Positions 752-31,487 of a stretch of DNA of 34,187 nt are shown piece by piece; position 1 is the stretch's first letter, and each line of letters starts with the position of its first letter. The notes under the pieces are model-generated. The model was not told where the DNA came from, did no database searches, and saw only the letters and a list, made by a program, of their open reading frames with translations. A program made the position numbers and the translations under genes. Location of the stretch: NCBI GenBank assembly GCA_031271325.1, contig JAISVY010000075.1, forward strand, positions 1-34,187, in the 5' to 3' direction. The DNA comes from Oscillospiraceae bacterium (GTDB lineage Bacteria > Bacillota > Clostridia > Oscillospirales > UBA929).

Positions 752-780
752 TTGCCTCTCTTGCCGCGATGTGGTATAAT
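752..780 (+). promoter_or_regulatory. Sigma-A-type promoter for the PHP/ABC operon
   Basis: TTGCCT (752-757), 17-nt spacer, TATAAT (775-780). Structured repeat copy 1 begins 14 nt downstream. Confidence 0.5.
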
Positions 781-794
781 CATCTTTGATATAC

Positions 795-904
795 GAAGTG
801 TTGAAAATTGCGTGTTCGCCTGAAAGGCGAACGAGCGGAGCGCTTGCGAACAGGCAGCTGTGCTGCGGCATCGCAAGCCGGAGCGGGCAATTTTCAACAT
901 GCCC
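795..904 (+). repeat. Dispersed structured element, copy 1 (full length, 110 nt)
   Basis: GAAGTGTTGAAAATTGCGTGTTCGCCTGAAAGGCGAAC...GGGCAATTTTCAACATGCCC. It has 14-nt terminal inverted arms and internal hairpins. It is 103/110 identical to the reverse complement of 18590-18699. Confidence 0.85.
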
Positions 905-938: not shown

Positions 939-1637
939 ATGTATCAATACGAAACCCATATGCACACGTCGCCGGTCAGCTACTGCGCGTCTGTGTCGCC
1001 GGAGGAACAGGTTCGCGCGTATAAAGACAGGGGGTACGCGGGGATTATCGTCACCGATCATTTTTTCAACGGCAACTCCGCTTGCCCGAAAGGGTTATCT
1101 TGGGAAGACGCGGCGGCGTTTTTTCTCTCGGGTTATGAGCGCGCAAAAACGGAGGGTGACAAAATCGGGCTGGATGTCTTTTTCGGCATGGAATACGCCG
1201 TTTTCGGCACGGAGTTTTTGACCTACGGTCTGACGCCGGAGTTTGTGCGGACGAACCCCGCCATGGACAAACTGTCGCCGCGGGAGTTCAGCGCCCTCGT
1301 GCGGGCAAACGGCGCTTACCTCGCACAGGCGCACCCATACAGAACCGGATCGTGGATCCAAAACCCCTACCCCGTGGATCCCGCTCTGATTGACGGCGTA
1401 GAAATCTATAACGTCTGCAGCGGCAACGAAACGACCAACGGGATGGCGCGTCAGTTCGCGCGCCGGCACAAACTCCCGGCGCAGGCGGGAACCGATTCCC
1501 ACAGCGCCGAGCTGCCGTTCACAAGCGGCATCGCGCTGCGGGAAAAAGCGCGTAACATATTTGACATCATAGAGGCGATAAAAACAGGGCGGGCAGAACT
1601 GATGATTCCGGAGGACACGCATGGGTCTATACGGTAA
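939..1637 (+). CDS. PHP domain-containing phosphoesterase (histidinol-phosphatase family)
   Basis: MYQYETHMHTSPVSYCASVSPEEQVRAYKDRGYAGIIVTDHF is a typical PHP N-terminus. I chose ATG 939 rather than the track start 786, because 786-938 runs through the non-coding repeat. Confidence 0.8.
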   Translation: MYQYETHMHTSPVSYCASVSPEEQVRAYKDRGYAGIIVTDHFFNGNSACPKGLSWEDAAAFFLSGYERAKTEGDKIGLDVFFGMEYAVFGTEFLTYGLTPEFVRTNPAMDKLSPREFSALVRANGAYLAQAHPYRTGSWIQNPYPVDPALIDGVEIYNVCSGNETTNGMARQFARRHKLPAQAGTDSHSAELPFTSGIALREKARNIFDIIEAIKTGRAELMIPEDTHGSIR

Positions 1638-6087: not shown

Positions 6088-8349
6088 TTATTTGACAAGC
6101 GCCGCCCATGTGGCGGGACCGACAATGCCGTCTTGGGTCAACCCCAGCGCGCGCTGCGCCGCCAAGACCGCGGCGTGGGTCGCGGCGCTGAACACGCCGT
6201 CTACGGCGACCTTCGGAACGGCGGAGTTCTTGCCGGCCAATTTGTTGATATAGATTTGCACGGTGCGTACGCTCTCGCCGTAGGAACCCTGCTGAACTAC
6301 AGCGCCGGGGTAAGCGGGGACGGGCGTGACCGCGCCTCCGACGACCGCGTCCCACGTGAGGGGTCCGACAAGCCCGTCATCGTCCAGCCCGAGCGCTTTC
6401 TGCGCCGCCAAAACCGCCGCCTGAGTCGCGGGGCCGAAGATGCCGTCCGCCGTGACCTTGGGAATGGACGAAAACCGGTTTGACAGCTGAATCAGGGCGT
6501 TCTGCAAAACGCGAACGCTTTCGCCGACGGAACCCTGCTGCAGCACAACGCCGGGATAAGGCGGCGCGCTTGCGGGAGGGGGTGCGGCGCTGCCCGTATC
6601 GCCGTAAAAATACGCGTTCATGATCGCGTTCCATGTGGCGGGACCGACGACGCCGTCCGGCGTCAGCCCGAACAGGCGCTGGAACGCCGTCACCTGCGCC
6701 TGCGTGGTGGCGCCGAAGATCCCGTCCCGGATAACGCGGGGGATAGAAGGATGGTCGTCGGCAAGCGCGTTGAGCAGCGACTGGATGAGATCGACGTTGC
6801 CGCCTCTGGAACCTGTCTTCAGAGGCGCGCCGGGATAAACGGGGATGTCACCGCCGCCGCTGTCCAGATTCAGGCTCTTGTACACCTCGTACAGTTTTTT
6901 CCATGTGGCGGGTCCCGCGATGCCGTCCTGCGTCAGCCCGAACTGCTTCTGGAACGCTTTGACCGCGCTGGCCGTGGCGGGTCCGTACGCGCCGTCTTCC
7001 AGCAGAACAGGGATGCCGTTGTAATACGCGGCGATGGCGTTGATCAGGAATTGCAGCTGCACGACGTTCCCGCCCGCGGAACCCTGACTGATCGTCGCGG
7101 TGGGCGGGTTCGCGCCGATTCCCACGCGCTGCCCCTCGCTGCCCAGTTCCGCGAGCTTTGTTACAGACAGATAATAGAAATTAATCTTGTTCCATGCGGC
7201 GCGGTCGATCACGCCCGTTTGCGGCAGACCGCTGAGCTTTTGAAACTCTCTGACCGCGGCGGCGGTATTGGCACCGTAACGCCCGTCCGGCGTGACCTTA
7301 GGCAGGGCGGGGAAATTGCCGGCAATGCGGTTGAGGTAGCTTTGCATCACCGCGACCGACGCGTTCATCGAGCCTTGCGAAAGTGTGTATCCGGGATATG
7401 AGGTCAGCACGTCGCTGATTCTGTCTGTTTGCGCAAGCTCGATGTTGTTCCCGTAATAGTATTTTAAAATATTCATGGCGGAGTACCCGGAGTTCGCCAA
7501 GCTGACTGTCCCCCATTGCGACATCCCCGGGCAGGCAGCGGTGACGCCGTCGCAGTAGGAGGAAAACAGCGGCTCTTTGTATCCGGTCCGCCGGATATAC
7601 TGTTGAAAGATCCGGTCGACGATCTGCGAGATGTTATCGGGGATCGTCTGCCCCTCTTTATAATATTGATCGTAGCGCGTGTCGTTGGTGATGTCGAAAT
7701 TATAGCCCTGCGTTCTGTACCACTCGGTGTAGACGCGGTTCAACGCCAGAGAGATAATCGCCTGAATGTTGGCTTCCAGCGACGCCTGCGGCCATGTGGC
7801 GTATATCTCGCTCGCCGCCGCGTTTTTTACATAGTTCGGGAAACTGACGGAGATGTTTTTCGCGGACGTGCTGCTCGGAGCTCCCATATGTACCGTAATC
7901 CGTGACGGAATCACAACGTCGGCGAGCGTAAACGGCACAAAGGGCGACGGCGTCGGTTTGGGCTGCTGCCCCGCGGGCGGGTCATGCTTGAGGGAACTGT
8001 CGGGGACGACGACGGTTTCCGATTCTTCGCCGCTCTCGTAACGCGGATACAGATAGACGGGCTGTGTTTGATAAATTCCGTCCAACACCTCCGCGCCCAC
8101 GATGTTTTCACCGATATAGCCGTCTTTTGTCACGGTTACGTTATAAGCCGCGTACGCTTCCCCTCCGGGTTGCATGGTGGTGGCGCTGTCCGGCGCGGAT
8201 AGGGAGACGGAGTCGGTTTGACCGTCCGCGTTGGTCGTCAGAGTGTACAGCTGCTGCCCGCCCTTATCGGAAATGATGACCTGCGCGCCCTCGACGGGCA
8301 GCGCTCCGTTCGCCGTCCGCACCTCTGCTTTCAGGGTTCCCTGTCCCAT
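6088..8349 (-). CDS. SleC-like spore cortex-lytic enzyme with five tandem peptidoglycan-binding (PG_binding_1) modules
   Basis: The N-terminus MGQGTLKAEVRTANGALPVEGAQVIISD is like a carboxypeptidase-regulatory domain. The core ITVHMGAPSSTSAKNISVSFPNYVKNAAASEIYATWPQASLEANIQAIISLALNRVYTEWYRTQGYNFDITNDTRYDQ...YCDG...CPGMSQWG matches my memory of the clostridial SleC catalytic region. Five repeats of the DGxxGxxTxxAVxxFQxxxGLxxDGxxGxxTW type follow. AGGAGG lies 8 nt upstream. No signal peptide. Confidence 0.75.
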   Translation of the reverse strand: MGQGTLKAEVRTANGALPVEGAQVIISDKGGQQLYTLTTNADGQTDSVSLSAPDSATTMQPGGEAYAAYNVTVTKDGYIGENIVGAEVLDGIYQTQPVYLYPRYESGEESETVVVPDSSLKHDPPAGQQPKPTPSPFVPFTLADVVIPSRITVHMGAPSSTSAKNISVSFPNYVKNAAASEIYATWPQASLEANIQAIISLALNRVYTEWYRTQGYNFDITNDTRYDQYYKEGQTIPDNISQIVDRIFQQYIRRTGYKEPLFSSYCDGVTAACPGMSQWGTVSLANSGYSAMNILKYYYGNNIELAQTDRISDVLTSYPGYTLSQGSMNASVAVMQSYLNRIAGNFPALPKVTPDGRYGANTAAAVREFQKLSGLPQTGVIDRAAWNKINFYYLSVTKLAELGSEGQRVGIGANPPTATISQGSAGGNVVQLQFLINAIAAYYNGIPVLLEDGAYGPATASAVKAFQKQFGLTQDGIAGPATWKKLYEVYKSLNLDSGGGDIPVYPGAPLKTGSRGGNVDLIQSLLNALADDHPSIPRVIRDGIFGATTQAQVTAFQRLFGLTPDGVVGPATWNAIMNAYFYGDTGSAAPPPASAPPYPGVVLQQGSVGESVRVLQNALIQLSNRFSSIPKVTADGIFGPATQAAVLAAQKALGLDDDGLVGPLTWDAVVGGAVTPVPAYPGAVVQQGSYGESVRTVQIYINKLAGKNSAVPKVAVDGVFSAATHAAVLAAQRALGLTQDGIVGPATWAALVK

Positions 8350-14166: not shown

Positions 14167-15483
14167 TTAACCCCCGGTTGCCTCTGTTTCGGACAAATCC
14201 ACCGTAAACCGGATTTCGTTGCTCTTTCGTTCCTGCCCGCCCACGGTCACCGTGCCGCCGGTGTAGACGACATCGCGCAGGATGTCCGCCGGGGGCCAAT
14301 AGTCGCTGTTGACAATCAGGTTTACCCGGCTCACGCCGCCGGGTACCCAGACGAAGAAATTCACGGCGGCGCTTTTCCCCGCTTGCAGACGCGACGGCAG
14401 CGGCATATCAACGCCCACATACCCCGGCGGCGTTCTGGACGCTTCCAGCGGAACCGTCCCGCCGTCATCGGTTATTCCGGTAAACGACACGTTGGTCGGG
14501 CTGTCTTTGAAAGGGGTTCCGGCGCGCAGGCGTATATCCGAACCGTTGCCGTTGCGGATGTCCATCAAAACCTGATAGCAGACGCCGCGGGCGTCGCTTC
14601 CCGCCTGCGCGGCGCTGTTCAGCGTAAAATCGCAGCCGTCAAGCGTGACCGTGTCGCCGATGCCGAACCGCCCGGTCAGGAAAGACAGCGCAGTGGCAGG
14701 ATATGGGGTATACGGGTGTTTCGCGTTGTACCCTCGGATGCTCAAAACCGTCATCAGCGAAGCGAGGAAAAAGAGCAGCGCGCAGACGCACATCGGGCGG
14801 AGCAAGCCGCGTTCGCGCCGAAGCCCCGGCAGGTCGCGCAGGTCGGCGTAATCGTCCCCGCGCATGGCGGGATGGATAAAAACGCCGCTCCGCTTCTCGA
14901 TCTCCCGCACAATCTGTTCCGCCTGATCGTAAAACATCGTGATTTCCAGCGTCGTGTCGCCCGGCGCGTACGCCGAGATTAAACGCAGTGTTTTTGTCGC
15001 GCGGTCATAGTCCAGCCCGACAATCCGGCTGTAGAGAAACTCACGCCGCACGGTGGGGGAGTATTTTCCGCGGAACACCATTCTACGCCGCATTTCCAAG
15101 ATCACGCGGTCGGCTCCCAGCGTCAGGGTGGGGCTGTGATACTTATGCAATTTGGACGCAAGCCCGAAAGCCTGCCGGATGTACAGCGCCGCGAGCACCG
15201 GCACAGCCAGCAAAAGCGAAAGGAAAAACCATGTGCGCAGCACCAGCGTGGCGTTGCGGAACCCCGCGCCCCAAACCAACAAACTGAGCGCCGCGAGGGC
15301 GCAGAACAATCCCATCCCGATTTTGCACAGCCGGTCGGGCAGCGCGTTTGCCGGGTTGCGCTCCCGCGCCAGCCGCAGGAAGCGGCTCACGCGGTCGGGC
15401 GTGGGAGCGAAGCGCACGCCGTCGTGCGCCGGAAGCTCAATCTCCCGCGTGATCTGCCTTGTGCGCCGGAACCCAAAATCCAT
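14167..15483 (-). CDS. Hypothetical membrane protein (three predicted TM helices, cytoplasmic PH-like middle region, C-terminal beta-rich extracellular domain)
   Basis: 438-aa ORF. Hydrophobic segments are IGMGLFCALAALSLLVWGAGF, TWFFLSLLLAVPVLAALYI and PMCVCALLFFLASLMTVLSI. I recognise no catalytic motif. The domain assignments are impressions only. Confidence 0.6.
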   Translation of the reverse strand: MDFGFRRTRQITREIELPAHDGVRFAPTPDRVSRFLRLARERNPANALPDRLCKIGMGLFCALAALSLLVWGAGFRNATLVLRTWFFLSLLLAVPVLAALYIRQAFGLASKLHKYHSPTLTLGADRVILEMRRRMVFRGKYSPTVRREFLYSRIVGLDYDRATKTLRLISAYAPGDTTLEITMFYDQAEQIVREIEKRSGVFIHPAMRGDDYADLRDLPGLRRERGLLRPMCVCALLFFLASLMTVLSIRGYNAKHPYTPYPATALSFLTGRFGIGDTVTLDGCDFTLNSAAQAGSDARGVCYQVLMDIRNGNGSDIRLRAGTPFKDSPTNVSFTGITDDGGTVPLEASRTPPGYVGVDMPLPSRLQAGKSAAVNFFVWVPGGVSRVNLIVNSDYWPPADILRDVVYTGGTVTVGGQERKSNEIRFTVDLSETEATGG

Positions 15484-15556: not shown

Positions 15557-15619
15557 GAAGTGTTGAAAATTGCGTGTTCGCCGGAAAGGCGAACGGGCGC
15601 AACGCTTGCAAACATGCCC
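15557..15619 (+). repeat. Dispersed structured element, copy 2 (internally deleted, 63 nt)
   Basis: GAAGTGTTGAAAATTGCGTGTTCGCCGGAAAGGCGAACGGGCGCAACGCTTGCAAACATGCCCC. It keeps the 5' arm, the P2 hairpin and the last ~9 nt, but lacks P3, P4 and the 3' arm. Confidence 0.75.
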
Positions 15620-15675
15620 CTATGGCAGGGCAAAGCTTTTTCGGGCGGCTGTATCGACATTATGCCACGATATAG

Positions 15676-15796: not shown

Positions 15797-15860
15797 GCAT
15801 CATTAGGCTCTGCAGGCGCGATCGTCCCGACCGCCCGCGAGGCAAGGGAAACGTGACACT

Positions 15861-15934
15861 GCGGCACAGCCGCCTGTTCGCAGCAACCCGCTCCGCTCGT
15901 TTGCCTGCCGGCAAACATGAGAATTTAGCGCTTC
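15861..15934 (-). repeat. Dispersed structured element, copy 4 (decayed, 5' two-thirds only)
   Basis: The sense strand is GAAGCGCTAAATTCTCATGTTTGCCGGCAGGCAAACGAGCGGAGCGGGTTGCTGCGAACAGGCGGCTGTGCCGC. It shares AACGAGCGGAGCG and GCGAACAGGC with copy 1. The P2 and P4 stems are kept through compensatory changes. It abuts the pck stop codon. Confidence 0.6.
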
Positions 15935-17728
15935 TTAATTGCCCGTCAGTCTCTGTTCCAGCGCCGCAAGCTGTTCGGACAGCACCTTCGGCAGTTTTTC
16001 GCCGTACTTCGCGTAATGCTCTTTAATCGACTGCACTTCGGCGAGCCAGGATTCTTTATCCACCTTCAGAAGTTCCGCCATGTCGGATTCACTCACGTTC
16101 AGCCCCGCGACATCAATGTCGCCAAGCGCCGGCATGTTGCCGATCGGGGTCTTGACCGCGTCCGCAGCGCCGGAGACGCGCTCCACGATCCATTTGAGCA
16201 CACGGCTGTTTTCGCCGTATCCCGGCCACAGCCATTTGCCGTCCGCGTTTTTGCGGAACCAGTTGACATAGTATATGCGCGGCAGTTTCGTCTCGTCCGA
16301 CTTCTCGCCGATGTCCAGCCAATGCTGCAAATAGTCGCACACATGGTAGCCCATGAAGGGGAGCATCGCGTACGGGTCGCGGCGTACCTGCCCGATCTTG
16401 TCGGAAATGGCGGCGGCGGTGATCTCCGAGCCCATGATCGAGCCGAGGAACACGCCGTGCTTCCAGTCAAAGCTCTCGTTGACCAGCGGGATGGTGTTGG
16501 GGCGGCGCCCGCCGATCAGAATCGCCGAGATGGGCACACCGGCCGGGTCTTCCCATTCGGGCGCGATCACCGGGCATTGGCTCGCGGGCGCTGTGAAGCG
16601 CGCGTTGGGATGCGCCGCTTTTTTATCCGAATCCGGCGTCCAGTCGTTGCCCTGCCAGTCGATCAGATGCGCGGGCGGCTCGGTTCCGATGCCTTCCCAC
16701 CACACATCGCCGTCGTCGGTCAGACCGACGTTGGTAAAGATGGTGTTGGTGGCAATCGAGCGCATGGCATTGGGGTTGGAATCCATCGAGGTGCCGGGCG
16801 CGACGCCGAAGAAGCCCGCTTCGGGGTTGATGGCGTACAGCCGCCCGTCCGCGCCGAACTTCATCCAGGCAATGTCGTCTCCGATTGTCTCGACCTTCCA
16901 GCCGGGGATGGTGGGGACGAGCATCGCGAGGTTGGTTTTGCCGCAGGCGCTGGGGAAAGCGCCGCAGACGTAATGGGATTTCCCTTCGGGGTTTGTGAGT
17001 TTCAGGATGAGCATATGTTCGGCCATCCAGCCTTCGTCGCGGGCCTGCACCGAAGCGATGCGCAGCGCGAAGCACTTCTTTCCGAGCAGCGCGTTCCCGC
17101 CGTAGCCGGAACCGTATGACCAGATCATCCGCTCTTCGGGGAAATGGCTGATATATTTCTGCTCAATCGGGGCGCATGGCCACGCCACGTCTTCCTGTCC
17201 CGGTTCCAGCGGCGCGCCGACCGAATGCAGGCAACGCACGAACTCCCCGTCGCCGAGGGTTTCAAGTACTTTTGTGCCGATCCGGGTCATGATGCGCATG
17301 TTGACCACGACATACGGGCTGTCGGTAATCTCCACGCCGATTTTGGAAATCGGCGAACCGATCGGACCCATTGAATAGGGGATGATATACATCGTCCGCC
17401 CCTTCATCGAGCCGTCGAAAAGCCCGGTCATCGTGGCTTTCAGCTCGTCCGGGTCAATCCAGTTGTTGGTAGGGCCCGCGTCTTCCTGCTTCTTAGACGC
17501 GATGAAGGTTCTGTCCTCCACCCGCGCGACGTCGGACGGGTGGCTCCTGAACAGGTAGCAGCCGGGGCGCTTTTTCAGCGGGGTAGCCATCCCCGAATCG
17601 ACCATCTCCCGGATCAGCCGGTCGTATTCCTGCTGGGTGCCGTCGCATAAATAGACGCTGTCGGGTTTGCAAAGACCGGCGATTTCTTTTATCCACGCGT
17701 TTAAGGCTTTGTTTGCGGTAGAAACCAT
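15935..17728 (-). CDS. pckG: Phosphoenolpyruvate carboxykinase (GTP)
   Basis: 597 aa. Contains [28 protein letters not shown] and [12 protein letters not shown] (the kinase-1a loop of GTP-PEPCK). Confidence 0.93.
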
Positions 17729-17892: not shown

Positions 17893-18558
17893 TTACAAAA
17901 ATTTCTTCGCCGCACGGGAACCCGCCTGATGCGTGATCGTCAGCAGACTGCGCACCAGCTGGGGGTACTCTTCGGTCAGGGTGTCGTTGGAGATGCCGGG
18001 CAGATTGGGCGGGTTGTTTTTTTGGTGCAGCACGGCGAGCAGCCGCGCCTCGCTCTCGGCCATATCCGCGTCGGAAGCGGGACCGTAGGCGCAGTCCGGG
18101 GCGGGGAATAGCCCCGAAACGCCCGATTGCGTGCAAAAATGGCGGAACATCTTATATACCGCGCCGCCGAAATAGTTGGTCAGTTCGGCGGCCAGCGCCG
18201 TGCTGCCAGAACGCCCCGCGAGGTCAAACAGGACGCATATGGCGTTGACGACCATCTTGCGCCCCAGCAGCGAAGAGACGGAAGATCGCCCCAGACGGTT
18301 CTGCTTATCTTCCTGCGCGTCGTATAACTCGTCGGCGTTCAGCGCCGCGCCGTCGCGCACCAGCGTCCGCCCCAGCAGATAGTCGGCGGATACGCCGTAG
18401 AAGTCGCAGGCGCGCACGAGGAACGGCAGACCCGGTTCCCTCGCGCCCGTTTCATAGTGGCTCAGAAGCGCCTGCGATATCCCCAGCGCCTCGGCCGCGC
18501 CGCGCTGGCTGAGTCCGCGTTCCTTCCGTAAAAACGCCAACACGCGGGAAAAGTCCAT
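17893..18558 (-). CDS. XRE-family helix-turn-helix transcriptional regulator with an uncharacterised ~150-aa C-terminal domain
   Basis: LRKERGLSQRGAAEALGISQALLSHYETGAREPGLPFLVRACDFYGVSADYLLGRT is a canonical HTH_3 motif. AGGAGGG RBS present. Confidence 0.85.
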   Translation of the reverse strand: MDFSRVLAFLRKERGLSQRGAAEALGISQALLSHYETGAREPGLPFLVRACDFYGVSADYLLGRTLVRDGAALNADELYDAQEDKQNRLGRSSVSSLLGRKMVVNAICVLFDLAGRSGSTALAAELTNYFGGAVYKMFRHFCTQSGVSGLFPAPDCAYGPASDADMAESEARLLAVLHQKNNPPNLPGISNDTLTEEYPQLVRSLLTITHQAGSRAAKKFL

Positions 18559-18589
18559 ACCCGTGCCCTCCTACTGTGTGTCACCTTAT

Positions 18590-18699
18590 GGGCATGTTGA
18601 AAATTGCCCGCTCCGGCTTGCAATGCCGCGCCAAAGGCGCCTGTTCGCAAGCGCTGCGCTCGTTCGCCTTTCAGGCGAACACGCAATTTTCAACACTTC
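18590..18699 (-). repeat. Dispersed structured element, copy 3 (full length, 110 nt)
   Basis: Its reverse complement matches copy 1 at 103/110 positions. It lies between the predicted promoter (18718-18746) and the XRE start codon, in the same orientation as the gene. Confidence 0.85.
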
Positions 18700-18717
18700 A
18701 CTTAAAACAGTAGGTAT

Positions 18718-18746
18718 AGTATACGCGGCAAATTACGGATTGTAAA
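18718..18746 (-). promoter_or_regulatory. Sigma-A-type promoter for the XRE regulator gene
   Basis: The minus strand reads TTTACA (18746-18741), 17-nt spacer, TATACT (18723-18718). Confidence 0.45.
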
Positions 18747-18847
18747 GAAGATTTTGAAAAAAACGCCGAATTTTGGGGGATTTACAAAAATAACCGGGAC
18801 TACCGGCATCCGCCCCCGGCGCGGGGACGGGTGTAACAAGAATATAG

Positions 18848-18876
18848 TTGCATGTTTGGGGGCTTTATGCTAAAAT
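18848..18876 (+). promoter_or_regulatory. Sigma-A-type extended -10 promoter for the pduL-glg gene string
   Basis: TTGCAT (18848-18853), 17-nt spacer ending in TGC, TAAAAT (18871-18876). This fits a TGnTAAAAT extended -10. Confidence 0.6.
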
Positions 18877-18917
18877 AGACCTATAAAACCCAAGTTAATT
18901 ATTACGAGGTGGATGCG

Positions 18918-19511
18918 ATGCCAGACTATCCTGCTTCCGGCGGCGGCCGGAGTGTGCTGATCGAGGGTTCAGCCCGCCATGTCCATTTGAAACGCGAAGA
19001 CTTGGATGCGTTGTTCGGCAGCGGTTACACGCTGCGCAAGAAGCGCGATTTGCTTCAGCCGGGAGAGTTTCTGACCGAAGAAAAGGTCACCCTGACCGGA
19101 CCCCGCGGGTCGGTGGAACGGGTTTCCGTGCTGGGACCCCTGCGGAGCGCCACGCAGGCGGAGATCTCGATCACGGACGCGCGCGCGCTGGGGGTTTCGG
19201 CTCCGGTACGCCTGAGCGGCGACATCGCCGGTTCCGCGCCGATACGCCTGACCGGTCCGGCAGGCAGCGTCGAGCTGGCCGAGGGCTGCATCGTCGCCAA
19301 GCGCCATCTGCACGTCACCCCCGCCGACGCCGAAACGCTCGGTATCACCGGGCGGAACACGGTTCGGGTGAAGGTGGGCGGCGAACGCGCGGTGACCTTT
19401 GACGAGGTGACGGTGCGCGTTTCCGAAAACTTCTATACCGAAGTACACCTCGACTACGACGAGATGAACGCCGCCGGGCTGTCCGGCGAAGTTTACGGCG
19501 AAATACTATAA
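18918..19511 (+). CDS. pduL: PduL-type phosphate acyltransferase (phosphate propanoyl/acetyltransferase)
   Basis: SARHVHLKREDLDALFG...LTGPRGSVERVSVLGP, then a second half-repeat AKRHLHVTPADAETLG...VRVSENFYTEVHLDYDEMNAAG. This is the typical two-repeat PduL pattern. ATG 18918 follows GAGGTGG; GTG 18909 is an alternative start. Confidence 0.85.
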   Translation: MPDYPASGGGRSVLIEGSARHVHLKREDLDALFGSGYTLRKKRDLLQPGEFLTEEKVTLTGPRGSVERVSVLGPLRSATQAEISITDARALGVSAPVRLSGDIAGSAPIRLTGPAGSVELAEGCIVAKRHLHVTPADAETLGITGRNTVRVKVGGERAVTFDEVTVRVSENFYTEVHLDYDEMNAAGLSGEVYGEIL

Positions 19512-19523
19512 AAAGAGAGTAGG

Positions 19524-21419
19524 ATGCGTATGTCCGGGTTAACAAAGGGAACCGACGTGAAGAACCATTTGTATCTGTTCCACGAGGGCAGCGACTGCCG
19601 GGCGTATGAGTTTATGGGCGCGCATTTCGAAACGCGGGGCGGCGAAGACGGCGTGGTGTTCCGGGTGTGGGCGCCCGACGCCAAGAGCGTTTCGGTGATC
19701 GGCGAATTCAACGGCTGGGCGCACGGGCAATGCCCGATGGAGCGCGTCTCGGTCGGCGTATGGGAACGCTTTGTGCCGGGACTTGCCGAATTCGACTCGT
19801 ATAAGTACGCCGTGGAGGGCAAAGACGGCGAGACGCGCGAAAAAAGCGACCCTTACGCTTTTCATGCCGAAGTGCGCCCCAAGACGGCTTCGAAGGTCTA
19901 CGAGATAGACGGCTACGGGTGGGGCGACGGCGATTGGATCGCCGCCCGGAGCACTCCCTACGATAAGCCGCTGAACATCTACGAAGTACATATGGGCTCT
20001 TGGCGGCGCGGCAAGGACGGAGAGCTGCTCTCCTATACCGAGATTGCCCGGCAGCTCGTGCCGTATGTAAAGGAAATGGGCTATACACACATAGAGCTGA
20101 TGCCGGTGATGGAGCATCCGTTCGACGGCTCGTGGGGGTATCAGGTGACAGGCTATTTCGCCGCCACCAGCCGCTACGGTACGCCCAAAGACCTGATGCG
20201 GCTGATCGACCTGTGCCATCAGGCGGGCGTGGGCGTGATTCTCGACTGGGTTCCCGCGCACTTTCCGAAAGACGGGCACGGGCTGATCGACTTCGACGGC
20301 GGCTGCTGCTACGAATACTCCGACCCCGAGCGCCGGGAGCACCCCGACTGGGGTACGCGCGTCTTCGACTACGGGCGCAACGAAACGCGCTCCTTCCTGA
20401 TGTCCTCGGCGATCTTCTGGCTCGATCTGTTCCACGCCGACGGGCTGCGGGTAGACGCCGTGGCCAGTATGCTCTACCTCGATTACGGCAAGCGCGGCGG
20501 CGGCCCCCGCAACATCTACGGCGGCCGCGAGAACCTAGAAGCGCTGGCGTTTCTGCGCAAGACCAACGAGCAGGTCTTCGCGGCGTTCCCCCACGCGCTG
20601 ATGATCGCCGAAGAATCCACCGCCTGGCCGATGGTGACCAAGCCCGTGTATATGGGCGGTCTCGGTTTCAACTTCAAGTGGAGCATGGGGTGGATGAACG
20701 ACACCCTGTCGTATATCAAGCTCGATCCGGTCTTCCGGCAGTATAACCACAACAAAATGACCTTCTCGATGATGTACGCGTTTACCGAAAACTATGTGCT
20801 GCCGCTCTCGCACGACGAAGTCGTGCACGGCAAATGCTCGCTGGTGGAGAAAATGCCGGGCTATTATGTGGATAAGTTTGCGGGGCTGCGCGTATACCTC
20901 TCTTATATGATCGCGCATCCGGGCAAGAAGCTGACCTTTATGGGCGCGGACTTCGCGCAGTTTGTCGAGTGGAACAGCGAGCAAAGCTTGGACTGGCATC
21001 TGCTGGACTACGATATGCACAGGATGCACCGCGAATTTGTCAAAGAGCTGAACCATTTCTACTTACGTAACCCGGGTCTGTGGGAAATCGAAGACTCGTG
21101 GGACGGCTTTACATGGATTACACCCGGCGACTATCAGGGCAATACCCTCGCGTTTATCCGCACGGCGAAGCGGGAGAGCGGCGGGCAATCCTTAATCTGT
21201 CTGTTCAACTTCTCCCCGGTAAACCGGGAGGGGTACCGCTTGGCGCTGCCGGATTCGGGGGTTTATCAAGAGGTGCTGAACAGCAACGAAGAGCGGTTCG
21301 GCGGGTTCGGACAGGTCAACGGAACCGTCACCGCCGTAAACATACCCTGCGGTCAGATGCAATGGTCGGCGCAGCTCACCCTGTCGCCCTACGGCGCGGT
21401 GTTCTTGACAAAACTGTAG
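19524..21419 (+). CDS. glgB: 1,4-alpha-glucan branching enzyme
   Basis: 631 aa. GH13 conserved regions are present: GVILDWVPAHF, DGLRVDAVASM, IAEESTAWP, LSHDEVVHGK. Confidence 0.93.
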   Translation: MRMSGLTKGTDVKNHLYLFHEGSDCRAYEFMGAHFETRGGEDGVVFRVWAPDAKSVSVIGEFNGWAHGQCPMERVSVGVWERFVPGLAEFDSYKYAVEGKDGETREKSDPYAFHAEVRPKTASKVYEIDGYGWGDGDWIAARSTPYDKPLNIYEVHMGSWRRGKDGELLSYTEIARQLVPYVKEMGYTHIELMPVMEHPFDGSWGYQVTGYFAATSRYGTPKDLMRLIDLCHQAGVGVILDWVPAHFPKDGHGLIDFDGGCCYEYSDPERREHPDWGTRVFDYGRNETRSFLMSSAIFWLDLFHADGLRVDAVASMLYLDYGKRGGGPRNIYGGRENLEALAFLRKTNEQVFAAFPHALMIAEESTAWPMVTKPVYMGGLGFNFKWSMGWMNDTLSYIKLDPVFRQYNHNKMTFSMMYAFTENYVLPLSHDEVVHGKCSLVEKMPGYYVDKFAGLRVYLSYMIAHPGKKLTFMGADFAQFVEWNSEQSLDWHLLDYDMHRMHREFVKELNHFYLRNPGLWEIEDSWDGFTWITPGDYQGNTLAFIRTAKRESGGQSLICLFNFSPVNREGYRLALPDSGVYQEVLNSNEERFGGFGQVNGTVTAVNIPCGQMQWSAQLTLSPYGAVFLTKL

Positions 21420-21432
21420 CAATCATTCCGCC

Positions 21433-21617
21433 GGTTCCCCGCTTGCGCGCGGGCGCATACGGTGTGCGCCTGTCCACGGCGCGTCAAGGATGCCGCGCCC
21501 TACGCGGTTCCCCCGCTTGCGTGCGGGCGCATACGGTGTGCGCCTGTTCACGGCGCGTCAAGGATGCCGCGCCCTACGCGGTTCCCCGCTTGCGCGCGGG
21601 CGCATACAATGTGCGCC
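21433..21617. repeat. Tandem repeat, 73-74 bp unit, about 2.5 copies, GC-rich hairpins, in the glgB-glgC intergenic region
   Basis: Units are 21433-21505, 21506-21579 and a partial 21580-21617. Units 1 and 2 differ by two substitutions and one extra C. Each unit holds three hairpins: CCCGC-ttgcgc-GCGGG, GGCGCA-tacggtg-TGCGCC and GGCGCG-tcaaggatgc-CGCGCC. Confidence 0.9.
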
Positions 21618-21667
21618 CATGAAAACTGCGTTTCTGTAATTATTTTCTCTATATGGAGGCGCTGCCA

Positions 21668-22864
21668 ATGAAAAAAGACTGTATCGCCATGCTGCTGGCC
21701 GGCGGGCAAGGGAGCCGTTTGTATGTGCTCACCGCCCACGTGGCGAAACCCGCGGTGCCGTTCGGGGGGAAATACCGCCTGATCGACTTCCCCCTCTCCA
21801 ACTGCATCAATTCCGGCATCGACACGGTCGGCGTGCTGACGCAGTATCAGCCGCACGAGCTGAACGCGTACATAGGCACGGGACAGCCGTGGGATCTCGA
21901 CCGCTTGGACGGCGGCGCGCACGTTCTGCCGCCTTATATGACCAGCAAGGGCAGCGAATGGTACAAAGGCTCGGCCAACGCCGTTTACCAAAACATCGGG
22001 TTTATCGAGCAGTATGACCCCGAATACGTGCTGGTGCTGGGCGGCGACCACATCTACAAGATGGACTACTCCAAAATGCTGGAACACCATAAAGCCACCG
22101 GCGCCGACTGCACGATTTCGGTCATCGGCGTGAGTTACGAGGAAGCGAAGTCGTTCGGGATCATGAACGTCAACCCCGACGGCACGATCTACGAGTTTGA
22201 GGAAAAACCCGCGAAGCCCAAGTCTACGCTGGCGTCGATGGGCATCTATATATTTACCTGGGAGAAGCTCAGGAAACACCTGATTGACGACGAAGCCGAC
22301 CCTCGCAGCGTCAACGATTTCGGCAAAAACATCATCACGAATATGCTCAACGCCGGAGAAAAGATGGTTGCCTACCGCTTTTCCGGCTACTGGAAAGACG
22401 TGGGCACGATCGACAGCCTGTGGGAAGCCAACATGGATATGCTTTCGGGCAACGAGATCGATCTGCTCAGCCCGACGTGGCGCATATATTCCCGCAACTC
22501 CGCCTCGCCCCCGCATTCCGTGGGCGAAAACGCGATTATATCGCACAGCTTGGCGGCCGAAGGCTGCGACATAAACGGTCTGGTTTACAATTCGGTGCTG
22601 TTCACCGACGTTACGGTGGAGCAGGGCGCGTATGTGGAATACTCAATCATCATGCCGGGCGCGGTGATCAAGAGCGGCGCGGCGGTGAAGTACGCGATTG
22701 TCGCCGAAGGCGCTGTAATCGAAGGCGGCGCGAAGGTCGGCGCTTCGCCCGACGAATGTAACGGTTCCGGCGATTGGGGCGTGGCCGTCGTCGCCTCCGG
22801 CGTCACCGTCGGTGCGGGGAAAACGGTCAAAGCGCGGGACATGATCGACGCGGACATACGATAG
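21668..22864 (+). CDS. glgC: Glucose-1-phosphate adenylyltransferase, catalytic subunit
   Basis: [55 protein letters not shown] lies 8 nt upstream of ATG 21668. Confidence 0.93.
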
Positions 22865-22876
22865 GGGGGACACGAA

Positions 22877-24049
22877 ATGAATGATATGCACGGCATCCTT
22901 TTCGCGTATTCTTCCGACCATCGGCTCAAACCGCTGACCGCGCACCGTACCGCCTGTTCGCTTCCGTTCGGGGCGCGTTACCGCGTCATCGACTTCATGC
23001 TGTCCAACATGGTGAATTCCGGGATTCCCGACGTGGGCGTGATTATGCGGGAGGACTATCAGTCGCTGCTCGACCATCTCGGCGCGGGGCGCGACTGGGA
23101 TCTCGCGCGGAAGCGCGGCGGGCTGCGGATTTTGCCGCCGTTCGCCTATGCGGGCGGATCGCGGGAAGCCGGCACCTACCGAGGCAAAATCGATGCGCTG
23201 AACGCCATACAAAGCTATATCTCGTTCATCCGGCAGGAATATATCGTACTGGCCGACGGCGACCTGATCGTCAACCTGCCGCTGGAAGAAATCTTCGAGC
23301 GTCACGTAAAATCCGGCGCGGACATGACCTGCGTATGCACATCGCGCAAAGACAACGGGTATGCCGCCGACGCGGCCTTCGTGCGGCTCGGCGCGGGGGA
23401 GCAGGTGACCGAGGTGCTGCTGTCCGCGCTGGGGGAAGACGTATATCCCTGCATCGGCGTGTACATCCTATCCAAAGACCTGCTGGTGAATCTGATGAAC
23501 AGATGCAACGCGGAAAATTCCGTGGACTTCACCAAAGACGTGCTGCAGCGGTACTATAAAGAAATGCGCATCAAAGCGTTTGTATACGACGGGTTCGCCG
23601 CGCGTCTGCACACCGTCGCCGATTATTTTGAGCAATCGATGAACCTGTTGAAACCCGAGGTGCGGGACGACCTGTTTTCGCGCAGCCGCCCGATCAAAAC
23701 CAAAATACGCGACGACGCCCCCACCTACTATTCGCCCGAAAGCAAAGTGAAATGTTCCGTCGTAGCCGACGGATGCTCGATCCGGGGCAATCTGGAAAAC
23801 TGCATCGTCTTTCGCGGCGTGCAGATCGAAGAGGGCGCGGTGCTCAAGAATTGCATCTTTATGCAGGATTCCCATATCGGTAAAAACACGAATCTTTCTA
23901 TATATATCACCGACAAGGAGGTCACCATTGAAGAAGGTTGTTCCGCGAAAGGACACCGGACGTTCCCGCTGACGATTCCCAAGGGGTCGGTCGTGGAGTT
24001 GTCCGACATGAAAGGTCTCTTCGATAAGCGCAGCAACGAAAAGCAGTAA
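22877..24049 (+). CDS. glgD: Glucose-1-phosphate adenylyltransferase, GlgD subunit
   Basis: Paralogous to glgC (PFGARYRVIDFMLSNMVNSG) but lacks the GGxGxRL loop. It sits at the Firmicute glgC-glgD position. Confidence 0.88.
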   Translation: MNDMHGILFAYSSDHRLKPLTAHRTACSLPFGARYRVIDFMLSNMVNSGIPDVGVIMREDYQSLLDHLGAGRDWDLARKRGGLRILPPFAYAGGSREAGTYRGKIDALNAIQSYISFIRQEYIVLADGDLIVNLPLEEIFERHVKSGADMTCVCTSRKDNGYAADAAFVRLGAGEQVTEVLLSALGEDVYPCIGVYILSKDLLVNLMNRCNAENSVDFTKDVLQRYYKEMRIKAFVYDGFAARLHTVADYFEQSMNLLKPEVRDDLFSRSRPIKTKIRDDAPTYYSPESKVKCSVVADGCSIRGNLENCIVFRGVQIEEGAVLKNCIFMQDSHIGKNTNLSIYITDKEVTIEEGCSAKGHRTFPLTIPKGSVVELSDMKGLFDKRSNEKQ

Positions 24050-24064
24050 GAAAGGAGCATGACC

Positions 24065-25507
24065 ATGAAAATCCTTTATGTCACCAGCGAAGCCGCGCCT
24101 TTCGCGAAAACCGGAGGTCTGGGAGACGTCGCGGGCGCTTTGCCCGCCGCAATCTCCGGGAAAGAAGACGAGGTGCGCGTCATCATGCCGCTCTACGCCT
24201 CTGTCTCCGACGATTGGCGTTCGCAGATGCGGTTTGTAAAGCAGCTCTATATCCCGCTCGCTTGGCGGAATCTTTACTGCGGTCTGTTTGAGCTGAAAAC
24301 CGGCGGCGGCACGGTCTATTTTGTGGACAACGAATATTACTTCAAACGCGGCGATATACACGGTCACTATGACGACGGCGAGCGCTTCGGCTTTTTCTCC
24401 CGCGCCGTCGCCGCCCTGCTGACCGAGCTTGACGGCTGGGTTCCCGAGGTTGTGCACTGCAACGATTGGCATACCGCCCTTGTTCCGGTTTATATGCGCC
24501 ATACATACGGCGGTGTTGCCGCTGTGGACGCGATGAAGACGGTCTTCACGATCCATAACGTCGAGTATCAGGGGCGCTTTGCCCGGGATACGCTGGAGAA
24601 TGTGTTCGGCTTGCCGCATACCCTCTTTGACGGCGGCACGCTGGAGTTTATGGGCGGCATTAACCTCATGAAGGGCGCGATCGAAATGTCCGACCGCGTG
24701 ACCACCGTCAGCCCCACCTACGCGCAGGAACTCAAAGAAGCCTTTTACGCCCACGGGCTGGACGGCGTGATTTCGGCGAACGAAGCCAAGCTTTCCGGCA
24801 TCCTGAACGGAATCGATACCAAGCTCTATAACCCCGAAAAAGACGAGTGCCTGACCAAAAACTATTCCCTGAAAAACCTTGCCGGCAAAGCCGTCTGCAA
24901 AGCGGAACTGCAAAAGATACTGGGGCTCGCGCAAAACCCCTCCGTACCGCTGATCGTATCGGTGGGCAGGCTGGTCAGCCACAAGGGCATTGATTTGATC
25001 GCGGACGGGCTGGACGAAATGATGGATATAAGGGGGGAAATTCAGTTCGCGCTGCTGGGGCGCGGCGACTGGCACTTCGAGCAGACCCTCTCCGCCATAC
25101 AGCACCGTTTCGAGGGGCGTGTTTCGGTATCCATCACCTACAACGCGGCGCTCTCAAACGCGTTTTACGCCGGAGGCGACATCTTCCTGATGCCGAGCCA
25201 GTCGGAACCGTGCGGGCTGAGCCAAATGATCGCGATGCGTTACGGCACGGTGCCGGTCGTGCGCGAAACGGGCGGCTTGCGCGACACGGTGGAGCCGTAT
25301 AACCCCGACACCGGCGAAGGGCTTGGATTCACGTTCGCAAACTATGACAAGTACGATATGCTGTTCGCCGTGCGCCGCGCCGTGGATTTGTATTACAGCG
25401 ACAAAGAGCGTTGGGGCGCGATTCAAAAACGCGGCATGTCCCGCAATTTCACATGGGCGGATTCCGCGAAGGCGTACAAGGCGCTGTATCAAGGACTGTT
25501 TGCGTAG
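24065..25507 (+). CDS. glgA: Glycogen synthase (ADP-glucose type)
   Basis: MKILYVTSEAAPFAKTGGLGDV is a canonical N-terminus. ATG 24065 lies 7 nt after AAAGGAG; the track start 24059 lies only 1 nt after the RBS. Confidence 0.92.
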   Translation: MKILYVTSEAAPFAKTGGLGDVAGALPAAISGKEDEVRVIMPLYASVSDDWRSQMRFVKQLYIPLAWRNLYCGLFELKTGGGTVYFVDNEYYFKRGDIHGHYDDGERFGFFSRAVAALLTELDGWVPEVVHCNDWHTALVPVYMRHTYGGVAAVDAMKTVFTIHNVEYQGRFARDTLENVFGLPHTLFDGGTLEFMGGINLMKGAIEMSDRVTTVSPTYAQELKEAFYAHGLDGVISANEAKLSGILNGIDTKLYNPEKDECLTKNYSLKNLAGKAVCKAELQKILGLAQNPSVPLIVSVGRLVSHKGIDLIADGLDEMMDIRGEIQFALLGRGDWHFEQTLSAIQHRFEGRVSVSITYNAALSNAFYAGGDIFLMPSQSEPCGLSQMIAMRYGTVPVVRETGGLRDTVEPYNPDTGEGLGFTFANYDKYDMLFAVRRAVDLYYSDKERWGAIQKRGMSRNFTWADSAKAYKALYQGLFA

Positions 25508-29592: not shown

Positions 29593-31487
29593 TTTACGCT
29601 TCAAGAAGCGCGCTTCACAAAACCCCGTTCGGCGCGGTTCGCGCCGGGGAAGCCGTTACCTTTACCCTGACGCCGCTCCGCGCTTTGGCTTGGAGCGGGG
29701 TAACTTTGTGCGTCAGCGACGAATTCGGGGGGAAATATACCGAATATCCGCTCCGCTGGCGCGGATTGCGCCGGGACTGCGACCTCTATGAGGTGACGCT
29801 GGATACGGCGGAACTGCTGGGCCCCGTGTGGTACTGGTTTCGCTTTGCCCTTGCGGGCGGCGGGAGCGGCATATACGACAACCCCGGAACCAAAGACGAC
29901 GGCGAGGGCGAGGTCTCTTCGGGCGGGGAGGCGCGGGCATGGCAGCAGACGGTGACGCTGGCCGGCGCGGAGGAGCCGCCCGATTGGTTTGGGCGGGGCG
30001 TGACCTACCACATCTTCCCCGACCGGTTTCGCAAGGGAGGCGCCAATACGCCGCCGCTCGCGTCGATGCCCGGCGAACGGGTGCTGCACAAAAACTGGGG
30101 CGACTGCCCGGATTTTCTGCCCGACGCCAACGGCGAGGTGCGCAACCGCGACTTTTACGGCGGCAATATCGCCGGGGTTTTGGAAAAGCTGCCGTATCTG
30201 CGCTCGCTCGGCGTGAACACGGTCTATTTCAGCCCGGTGTTTGAAGCGGCTTCCAACCACCGCTACGACACCGCGTGTTATACAAGAATTGACCCGCTGT
30301 TCGGCACGGAAGAAGAGTTTTCGCTGTTATGCGCCAAAGCCCGCGAGCTTGGCATACGGATCATTCTGGACGGCGTATTCAACCATACCGGTTATAACAG
30401 CGAGTATTTTAACGGCGCGGGATTCTACGGAACCGTAGGGGCAAAGCAGTCTAAAGCGTCGCCGTATTACCGTTGGTATAACTTTTCGCATTGGCCGGAC
30501 GAATACGAAGCCTGGTGGGGCGTGTACACGCTGCCGCAGGTCAACGAAGCGGACCCGGAATACATAGACTTTATCGTACGGGGCAAGGATTCGGTGGTGC
30601 GGCGCTGGCTGCGCGCGGGCGCGGGCGGCTGGCGGCTGGACGTGGCCGATGAACTGCCCGATTCGTTTATCGCCGCCCTTCGGGACGCGTCGCGGGAGGA
30701 AAAGCCCGACGCGGTGATTATCGGCGAGGTGTGGGAAGACGCGTCCAACAAGGTCGCCTACGGGGTACGGCGGCAGTATCTGCTGGGGCGCGAACTGGAC
30801 GGCGTGATGAATTATCCGCTGCGCAACTGCCTGATCGGCTATATACTGGGCGGCGACGCGGCGCACTTCAAACGGGATATGGAGACGCTGCGGGAGCATT
30901 ACCCGCGCGGCGCTTACCAGAGTTTGATGAACGCCCTGGGCACCCATGACACCCCGCGTATCCTGACCGTACTGGGCGCAACACCCGAGGAATGGTCGCA
31001 AACGAAGGAGGAGCGCGCGGAAACCTTCCTGCCGCCGGAACGGCGCGAACTGGCGATCCGCCGCCTCATGGTGGCGTCGGCGCTGCTGTATACCTTTCCG
31101 GGGTCGCCCTGCGTGCTGTACGGCGACGAGGCGGGGTTGGAGGGGTTTGAAGATCCGTTTAACCGGCGCGGGTATCCGTGGGGCAGCGAAGAAAAGCGCT
31201 TGCTGCGCTGGTACGCGGCGCTCGGCGCTTTGCGCGGCGCGTCCGAAGCGCTGCAGGCGGGAGAAATTCAGTATATAACCGCCGATCGCGGCATATTGGC
31301 TTATGAGCGCATTTATAAAAACGAAAGGGTTTTGATCTGCGCGAACCGCGGTGACAATCCCGGCGAGGCGGCGGTGCGCGAAAGCGGGCGTGTGGTTCTG
31401 GATAAACTGAGCGGTCAGGTGTTCCGCTCAAAGAGCGGAACACTGACGGTTCCGCTGGAGCCGCTCAGTGTGAGGATTCTTATGTAG
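29589..31487 (+). CDS. GH13 alpha-glucosidase/neopullulanase-like glycoside hydrolase
   Basis: N-terminal Ig-like domain followed by GH13 regions: ILDGVFNHTG, GGWRLDVADELP, IIGEVWEDA, LGTHDTPR. The ATG overlaps the metG stop (ATGA). Confidence 0.85.
   Translation: MIYASRSALHKTPFGAVRAGEAVTFTLTPLRALAWSGVTLCVSDEFGGKYTEYPLRWRGLRRDCDLYEVTLDTAELLGPVWYWFRFALAGGGSGIYDNPGTKDDGEGEVSSGGEARAWQQTVTLAGAEEPPDWFGRGVTYHIFPDRFRKGGANTPPLASMPGERVLHKNWGDCPDFLPDANGEVRNRDFYGGNIAGVLEKLPYLRSLGVNTVYFSPVFEAASNHRYDTACYTRIDPLFGTEEEFSLLCAKARELGIRIILDGVFNHTGYNSEYFNGAGFYGTVGAKQSKASPYYRWYNFSHWPDEYEAWWGVYTLPQVNEADPEYIDFIVRGKDSVVRRWLRAGAGGWRLDVADELPDSFIAALRDASREEKPDAVIIGEVWEDASNKVAYGVRRQYLLGRELDGVMNYPLRNCLIGYILGGDAAHFKRDMETLREHYPRGAYQSLMNALGTHDTPRILTVLGATPEEWSQTKEERAETFLPPERRELAIRRLMVASALLYTFPGSPCVLYGDEAGLEGFEDPFNRRGYPWGSEEKRLLRWYAALGALRGASEALQAGEIQYITADRGILAYERIYKNERVLICANRGDNPGEAAVRESGRVVLDKLSGQVFRSKSGTLTVPLEPLSVRILM

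Follow-up and report, generated by a model that had tools for sequence, protein, structure and literature searches.

A probable MITE-like repeat family with a conserved, covarying fold in uncultured Oscillospiraceae

Four copies of a ~110-nt structured element are dispersed through a 34,187-nt stretch of DNA from an Oscillospiraceae bacterium (contig JAISVY010000075.1, positions 1 to 34,187; hereafter the window). We conclude that this element is most probably a non-autonomous, transposable repeat of an uncultured Oscillospiraceae clade that resembles miniature inverted-repeat transposable elements (MITEs). As such, it is a new repeat family of an already known bacterial class and not a new regulatory RNA. 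Four of five MITE features were found: the element is short and lacks a transposase gene, it carries 14-bp terminal inverted repeats (TIRs), it is flanked by 6-bp target-site duplications (TSDs), and its copies are dispersed and polymorphic. A first-pass annotation of the window had named REP/MITE-like elements among its options; the MITE-like part of that suggestion is correct, with the addition that the fold is unusually well conserved.

The dispersed structured element that had been proposed is real. Full copies lie at 795-904 on the plus strand (copy 1, GAAGT...ATGCCC; 127.7 bits with the covariance model described below) and at 18590-18699 on the minus strand (copy 2; 131.9 bits), and they differ at exactly 7 of 110 positions in our alignment of full copies. 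A 23-mer, GTGTTGAAAATTGCGTGTTCGCC, occurs three times in the window and in none of 100 shuffles, and a repeat search aligns 795-919 with 18575-18699 at 89%. Both remaining copies are decayed. Copy 3 had been described as internally deleted, a description that is too simple: the covariance model aligns 15557-15664 (plus strand; 35 bits, E = 1.7e-7) end to end, as a decayed full-length copy that has lost 4 nt and whose 3′ P1 arm is disrupted. The 5′ 60 nt of this copy are intact and its 3′ half is degenerate; it lies antisense to the minus-strand gene at 14167-15483, upstream of the start of that gene. Copy 4 is on the minus strand, as first reported, and extends over about 15834-15934 instead of 15861-15934 (19 bits, E = 0.005), starting directly past the stop codon of the open reading frame (ORF) at 15935-17728. 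A further weak covariance-model match in the window, at 31403-31473, was rejected as an unrelated hairpin within a coding region.

Minimum free energy (MFE) folds of both full copies reproduce the four helices that had been drawn by eye (z = -5.0 and -4.6). In element positions, P1 runs from G4-U106 to C17-G93 (14 bp), P2 from U19-G39 to U27-A31, P3 from C47-G86 to A55-U77 with one bulge, and P4 from G60-C72 to C64-G68. The predicted fold is a Y-shaped three-way junction, in which P1 closes a junction of the P2 hairpin and an extended P3-P4 hairpin. In copy 1 (all features on the plus strand), the 5′ P1 arm, which is also the left TIR (GTGTTGAAAATTGC, 798-811), pairs with the 3′ arm or right TIR (GCAATTTTCAACAT, 887-900), as indicated by the predicted fold and by covariation. 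P2 (UGUUCGCCU-GAA-AGGCGAACG) occupies 813-833 and shows compensatory changes in locus L031 and in subfamily b, and the arm made of P3, a 4x4 internal loop and P4 (841-880) forms the most conserved core of the family. The reverse strands of copies 1 and 2 fold almost equally well (z = -4.9 and -3.6). The variant P4 GCGCC/GGCGC and the G-U pair in P3, which had been assigned to copy 3, are present in the window and belong to the copy at 18590-18699. Read directly from the sequence, the stems of copy 4 are GTTTGCC/GGCAAAC for P2 and GCGGC/GCCGC for P4.

The aligned copies define the repeat unit as GAAGT-[P1...P1′]-ATGCC(C), with a mean column identity of 95%, so that the P1 arms sit 3-4 nt inside each end. 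Main-family copies begin and end with GAAGTGTTGAAAATTGC ... GCAATTTTCAACATGCCC, and those of subfamily b with CTCTAAAACCC ... GGGGTTTTAGAG. The 110-nt element is non-coding and too short for a transposase gene. No terminator- or promoter-like site was found within the two full window copies. We dropped a reading as an intrinsic terminator-like repeat (e.g. SPRITE), which would have a GC-rich stem and a U-run behind it: no terminator-like site overlaps the full copies, and CAUGCCC follows P1.

Further copies were collected with the pattern GTTGAAAATTGC-N60-90-GCAATTTTCAAC, which was run against 185,579 species-representative genomes and returned 21 loci in three metagenome-assembled genomes (MAGs): 15 in the Oscillospiraceae MAG Mx356_bin29, five in Clostridiales bacterium UBA929 and one in Mx356_bin4. 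The assemblies of these MAGs are JAISVI01, DBDP01 and JAISVO01. The identical pattern gave five further copies in one metagenome assembly (QMCE01). A covariance model built on these 28 full copies (two from the window, 21 from the genome scan and five from the metagenome) recovered about nine diverged or truncated relatives in the loci already collected. Alignment A1 comprises the 28 full copies; alignment A3 comprises 37 sequences, including the diverged copies, aligned to the model. Other searches were negative. In agreement with the initial statement that no known RNA family was recognized, Rfam 15 gave no match at the gathering score over the whole window and none at E <= 10 over positions 700-1000. 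Blastn of the element against plasmid and phage collections found no match; a scan of viral contigs with the 17-nt left end gave chance matches only, in 34-45% G+C DNA, and one with the core pattern gave none. A full-text literature search for the 12-mer GTTGAAAATTGC returned no relevant paper, and exact look-ups of three proteins from the window yielded no record. The family is confined to a small clade of uncultured Oscillospiraceae.

Evidence for mobility comes first from the flanks of the copies. Exact direct repeats of at least 5 bp (ATACTC, TGTATC, CTGATC, TTTTATT, ATTAT and TAAAA) flank 6 of 23 copies, where 0.3 would be expected and none of 2000 permutations gave more than 3. When fixed 6-bp flanks are compared, the mean is 3.39 matches of 6, compared with 2.09±0.21 after permutation, a value that was reached in 0 of 5000 permutations. 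The duplicated targets are ~6 bp long, A/T-rich and mostly end in C. Subfamily b shows the same: its copy at L034:912-1018 has ATACGG on each side, and that at L011:5751-5871 is flanked by ATATAT/ATATGT. At copy 2, the upstream flank TTAAGT (18700-18705, minus strand) and ATAAGG at 18584-18589 form a decayed 6-bp TSD in which 4 of 6 positions match.

Comparison with relatives reveals the corresponding empty sites. Window positions 17903-25479 are syntenic with the UBA929 contig L008 (7.5 kb, 75-83% identity), and occupancy is reciprocal: copy 2 is missing in L008, and the copies in L008 face 9-nt and 14-nt spacers in the window. Copy 2 lies in the leader of a gene for an XRE-family helix-turn-helix (HTH) regulator (17893-18558, minus strand), whose start codon is 31 nt past the element and whose promoter-like site, TTTACA-17-TATACT (18718-18746, minus strand), is 18 nt upstream of it. 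We took XRE orthologues from five other assemblies. The XRE-leader site is empty in five relatives, and L008, L036/37, L038/39 and L040 all retain its -35, its -10 and 'ctgtttt' but have no copy of the element. The promoter-like site of the orthologues reads TTTACx-17-TATAxT, followed by 'ctgtttt' and then directly by the ribosome-binding site (RBS), and the 110-nt insert is found only in the window. The covariance model detected no copy in 45 kb from these XRE-bearing relatives. Since relatives with this promoter have nothing inserted at the orthologous position, copy 2 is a derived insertion into a pre-existing 5′ untranslated region (UTR). The ~95% identity of copies within one genome likewise indicates recent spread.

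Some loci carry more than a single simple insertion. At L013:2942-2973, a 16-nt tandem duplication, ATGCCCTGAGAGGAAC / ATGCCCTGAGAGGAAG, takes in the 3′ end of the element. L008:1603-1780 and L034:542-680 each hold two copies only 5-10 nt apart, first a full one and then one that lacks its 3′ end; this arrangement suggests tandem or nested insertion, or insertion beside an existing copy.

Copy 1 is placed much as copy 2 is. A promoter-like site, TTGCCT-17-TG-TATAAT (752-780, plus strand), lies 14 nt upstream and is a property of the host gene, not of the element; the start codon of the downstream gene (939-1637, plus strand) is 34 nt past the element. The protein encoded by this gene, called "PHP" in the first-pass annotation, has no Pfam match at E <= 1e-5. 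The promoter and start-codon distances given for the two window copies were therefore correct, and their leader position is genuine, in that both are insertions between a promoter and an RBS. It is no rule of the family, however. Genes were called by G+C content at third codon positions (GC3) with refined starts. Of the 23 copies that the window and the genome scan provide, 9-10 are sense and codirectional with both neighbours, five are codirectional but antisense, five lie between divergent starts and three between convergent ends. Across a set of 35 copies examined, 22 sit 14-44 nt from a start codon with a Shine-Dalgarno sequence, 14 of them sense (ending 14-44 nt before the start) and eight antisense (beginning 15-22 nt away), a split with no significant departure from 1:1. 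Most copies of the family occupy short spacers directly ahead of an RBS or directly behind a stop codon, and some separate convergent genes. Mixed orientation together with TSDs is the combination that had been named in advance as the mark of a plain MITE, and both are found here; the claim that copies form 5′ leaders in gene orientation stands for the two window copies and fails for the family, whose start-proximal members are of both orientations and precede unrelated genes.

These neighbours encode an SLH protein, RACo, an HtrA-like protease, glycogen synthase, glycosyltransferases, FBPase, SpoIIR, an OmpR-type regulator, XRE, a MATE transporter, an FGGY kinase and an ABC transporter. As they are unrelated, the element is no riboswitch-like or regulon-specific leader. 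In 7 of 20 start-proximal cases there is a promoter-like site close by, 1-43 nt beyond the edge of the element, and in none of these 20 was one found inside the element or between it and the start codon. Because no such site lies inside or downstream of the element, start-proximal copies would be co-transcribed with the gene in either orientation. Four copies also give the upstream ORF its stop codon, a TGA at element positions 8-10 (L003:1118-1227, L013:2838-2947, L016:3407-3516 and L021:6917-7026), as does a subfamily-b copy with TAA (L008:1603-1711). Because the upstream ORF stops inside the element, some insertions have replaced the final codons of a gene.

Could the element nonetheless be a cis-regulatory leader RNA of the riboswitch, attenuator or protein-binding type, inherited with the genes that it controls? 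The sense placement of both full window copies between a promoter-like site and a start codon and the strongly conserved fold would fit such a function. Mixed orientation, unrelated downstream genes and TSDs do not, and neither do the orthologous XRE leaders that lack the element in five relatives nor the ~95% identity within one genome, which indicates recent spread. Moreover, no conserved terminator or RBS-sequestering alternative is present. An alternative pairing between GTTCGC (20-25) and GCGAAC (52-57), proposed earlier as the basis of mutually exclusive folds, lacks conservation: three copies have A, T or C at position 52 and a matching change in its P3 partner, position 80, whereas C25 never varies. 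We regard a leader RNA as very improbable.

We also dropped readings as an integron attC site, a retron non-coding RNA or a hammerhead-like RNA, which are contradicted by wrong polarity or missing core motifs, by multi-copy dispersal and by TSDs. For attC in particular, the 5′ end reads GTTGAAA and the 3′ end TTTCAAC, the opposite polarity to 5′-RYYYAAC...GTTRRRY-3′, and the element occurs as single dispersed copies with TSDs, whereas attC sites stand in cassette arrays beside intI.

The fold itself is supported by covariation, and the compensatory substitutions first noted among four copies are upheld in the larger set against both shuffled and slid controls. In A1, 98.2% of cells are standard pairs and seven pairs are doubly changed, compared with 2.3±0.9 in shuffles and 0-3 with slid partners. 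In A3, the paired fraction is 97.2% and double changes affect 22 of 40 pairs (6.7±1.8 in shuffles, 4-8 when slid), including 10 of the 14 P1 pairs; the absence of covariation that would have spoken against a selected structure is thus not what we observe. A model-independent alignment with MAFFT and RNAalifold yields the identical four helices, with 17 of 37 pairs compensated. Pair 52:80 takes all four Watson-Crick types (G-C, A-U, U-A and C-G), U-A has replaced C-G on three occasions at pair 53:79, 14 rows have C-G and 12 have G-C at pair 63:69, and P2 switches from T-A to C-G in L031. P1 does not vary within the main family; its covariation is that of the diverged subfamilies. The covariation is genuine, but what it points to is a mobile structured repeat, not a regulatory RNA of particular genes.

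Three internal-loop columns, 56, 75 and 76, also co-vary by genome without pairing. Both window copies and the majority of those in Mx356_bin29 combine A56 with C75 A76; the combination of G56 with T75 G76 is found in four of five UBA929 copies (the exception is L008:6213-6321) and some QMCE01 copies. The UBA929 subfamily-b copy carries the signature of its genome. Either the core is homogenized within each genome, or the loop co-evolves with a genome-specific partner.

Compensation of this kind might also arise without selection, in an ordinary decaying MITE whose hairpins are kept paired by intrastrand template switching, gene conversion and subfamily structure. P2, P3 and P4 are DNA palindromes, a setting in which templated correction is known; several double changes define subfamilies, as at 63:69; the non-pairing signatures at 56, 75 and 76 co-occur in the same way; and the shuffle control disregards the relatedness between copies. 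The slid controls, however, keep that relatedness and still give 0-3 and 4-8 doubly changed pairs against the 7 and 22 observed. In addition, pair 52:80 shows its four Watson-Crick pairs as singletons, and the P1 arms remain paired although 75 nt separate them and 10 of their 14 pairs differ from one subfamily to another. A strand-symmetric DNA mechanism would also not predict an excess of G-U over A-C, which is what the single-sided changes show: on the strand called sense in the first-pass annotation, there are 28 G-U and 12 A-C cells, part of the latter stemming from decayed or poorly aligned copies. We consider a purely mutational origin of the pairing improbable.

This wobble asymmetry has a further property. 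Two helix-terminal pairs, 4:106 and 19:39, are constitutively G-U, and the copies that are antisense to host transcription still have about five G-U against one or two A-C cells, as tallied from A1 and the context table. Because the bias persists in antisense copies, the polarity seems to be that of the element itself and not of the local transcript.

The diverged subfamilies add a second unexpected pattern. In three of the four diverged copies compared, the core (the junctions and P3-loop-P4) matches the main family at 81-94% identity; the remaining copy, L001:2968-3112, has an extra hairpin and a core that is 51% identical. The diverged P1 arms, by contrast, have 43-62% identity to the main family, largely owing to a common A4/T4 tract, and are still complementary (CTCTGTAAAACTCC / GGAGTTTTCAGAG; CCGGAAAACTCC / GGGGTTTTCCGG; CTCTAAAAACCC / GGGTTTTTAGAG). 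In some subfamilies P2 is replaced by another hairpin, and shorter variants without P3-P4 occur at L016:1866-1945 and L003:2404-2485.

Several points weigh against a MITE. A conserved core with a variable P1 is unusual, since in MITEs it is normally the TIRs that are conserved; possible sources are different transposases for each subfamily combined with gene conversion of the core, recombination that swaps ends, or recognition of the core. The argument from wobble polarity draws on few events, some of them not independent. The outermost 4-6 nt, GAAG and TGCCC, do not repeat each other in inverted form. Within the ~265 kb examined we found neither an autonomous element nor a transposase with matching ends, and the solitary P1 arms in the collected loci are truncated copies only, none of which adjoins a transposase gene. 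Because no autonomous element was found, mobilization by a DDE transposase is suggested by the TIRs and fixed-length TSDs only. Finally, 15 of 22 copies lie within 45 nt of a start compared with 11.2 expected under a uniform-insertion null (P = 0.02), so the excess near starts is modest once short intergenic spacers are counted.

The core conservation and the wobble polarity would both be expected of a mobile element that spreads through a strand-specific single-stranded intermediate, either an RNA that is reverse-transcribed or a folded single-stranded DNA (ssDNA), and that is recognized by shape instead of being a classical TIR-bearing MITE. Such an element might well retain its core better than P1, whose sequence is replaced yet paired, and would account for the 28:12 ratio, the two constitutive G-U pairs and the bias in antisense copies; the asymmetric outermost ends and the lack of a visible cognate insertion sequence (IS) also agree with it. 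The TSDs do not, since a fixed length of ~6 bp is the signature of staggered double-strand cutting of the DDE type. Known HUH ssDNA transposons and group II introns leave no TSD, and target-primed retroelements produce TSDs that vary as well as tails, features that the element does not show. No linkage to a reverse transcriptase or HUH gene was seen, with no test aimed at it. The counts involved are also small, and gene conversion within a genome could homogenize the core. On balance we think this route unlikely, if worth keeping in view. A more specific version, in which the folded intermediate would be recognized by the core (junction, P3, internal loop and P4) while P1 acts as a drifting structural clamp, strikes us as a little less probable again; if true, it would be a core-recognized single-strand route as yet undescribed for elements with fixed 6-bp duplications.

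A related possibility is a repeat of the REP/REPIN type, mobilized by a RAYT (IS200-like Y1) transposase. REP/REPIN sequences are, like the element, dispersed extragenic repeats that form hairpins of conserved structure, and the intergenic dispersal and strand-biased fold seen here would suit them. They are, however, GC-rich palindromes of 20-40 nt that share a 5′ tetranucleotide, leave no TSD and go with RAYT genes. The first three traits are not those of the element: it has no GTAG-type 5′ tetranucleotide, it is a 110-nt three-way junction instead of a 20-40-nt palindrome or doublet, and it has TSDs, which REP/IS200-type transposition does not make. There is very little probability in this reading.

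Our favoured interpretation as a MITE-like repeat finds closer parallels among other families. Bacterial MITEs as a class are small, with TIRs, TSDs and stable RNA hairpins (PMC3184786). The closest analogue appears to be bcr1 of the Bacillus cereus group, a resemblance of function only. Bcr1 is a Firmicute intergenic repeat of 100-155 bp with 5-bp direct repeats; it is transcribed, its distribution is not conserved between related strains, its mobilizing enzyme is unknown, and its multi-stem 'cruciform-like' RNA fold is retained by compensatory changes (PMC3184786, summarizing Okstad 2004, Klevan 2007 and Kristoffersen 2011). Both repeats thus combine short direct repeats (5 bp in bcr1, about 6 bp in the element) with a compensated multi-stem fold. 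They differ in host, Bacilli as opposed to uncultured Oscillospiraceae, and are likened here by description and not by sequence. Because the hosts are Oscillospiraceae MAGs, we treat the element as an analogue of bcr1 and not as a member. Transcription has been shown for bcr1 and would be expected for the element, and the modularity of a variable P1 and a conserved core cannot be attributed to bcr1.

Other known MITEs share the size and placement. Correia/NEMIS/CREE elements of Neisseria are ~100-155-bp MITEs with TIRs and TSDs that often lie 5′ of genes, are co-transcribed and form long mRNA hairpins (PMC3184786). They have 26-bp TIRs, a TA duplication, an IHF site, outward promoters and one long hairpin, whereas the element has 14-bp TIRs, a 6-bp TSD, no promoter-like site in the two window copies and a three-way junction. 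ERIC/IRU of Enterobacteriaceae and RUP of Streptococcus pneumoniae are MITEs of 107-127 bp that form imperfect palindromes (PMC3184786, Table 1) and, as with the element's size and placement, lie in transcribed intergenic regions in either orientation (PMC3184786). They differ in their TA-type duplications and single extended hairpin. A partner of the IS630 family has been proposed for RUP.

Taken together, a plausible course for the element is the following. A transposase acting in trans is predicted to cut with a 6-bp stagger at A/T-rich hexamers, which in these ~57% G+C genomes would be found mostly between a promoter or preceding stop codon and the Shine-Dalgarno sequence. Start-proximal and intra-operon copies would then be co-transcribed, as a very stable stem-loop of ~-54 kcal/mol in the 5′ UTR or intercistronic spacer. 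The fold may be selected because a self-contained insert spares the neighbouring RBS, and it may also stabilize the mRNA. Alternatively, it may be selected through propagation in a strand-specific folded single-stranded form, an option that we raise because the wobble intermediates follow the polarity of the element and not host transcription.

Some other repeats came to light during this work. At 21429-21649 of the window, ~2.5-3 copies of a 74-nt GC-rich unit (93% matches) form a tandem array in the spacer between the ORFs at 19524-21419 and 21653-22864, in the glycogen-operon region; L008 has a syntenic spacer that is shorter by about 100 nt. This unit showed no special fold (z about 0) and no Rfam match. 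Within the minus-strand ORF at 6088-8349, five units of 66-128 nt with 61-82% identity are spaced 246-291 nt apart over 6094-7255 and most probably correspond to repeated domains inside the 753-aa protein that this ORF encodes. Three metagenome matches to the search pattern, L029:1476-1589, L032:1920-2033 and L035:73-186, were rejected: they are near-perfect 114-nt palindromes on ~40% G+C contigs, have only the 12-mer GTTGAAAATTGC in common with the element, and look like an unrelated long-hairpin repeat. Two weak covariance-model matches, L021:4575-4668 and L007:2593-2689 (23 and 16 bits, 67-71% G+C), have similar flanks (gagcgcatc.cccga ... gcgaggg) and may be another conserved structured sequence or part of paralogous genes.

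For a poorly known group of uncultured gut anaerobes, these findings indicate that a mobile repeat has placed a stem-loop of ~-54 kcal/mol 14-44 nt upstream of the starts of unrelated genes in 22 of 35 copies. Repeats of this kind can alter mRNA stability and operon polarity. They also disrupt the assembly of metagenomes, and comparative screens can take them for riboswitch-like motifs; this family offers a clean case of real covariation without a gene-specific regulatory RNA.

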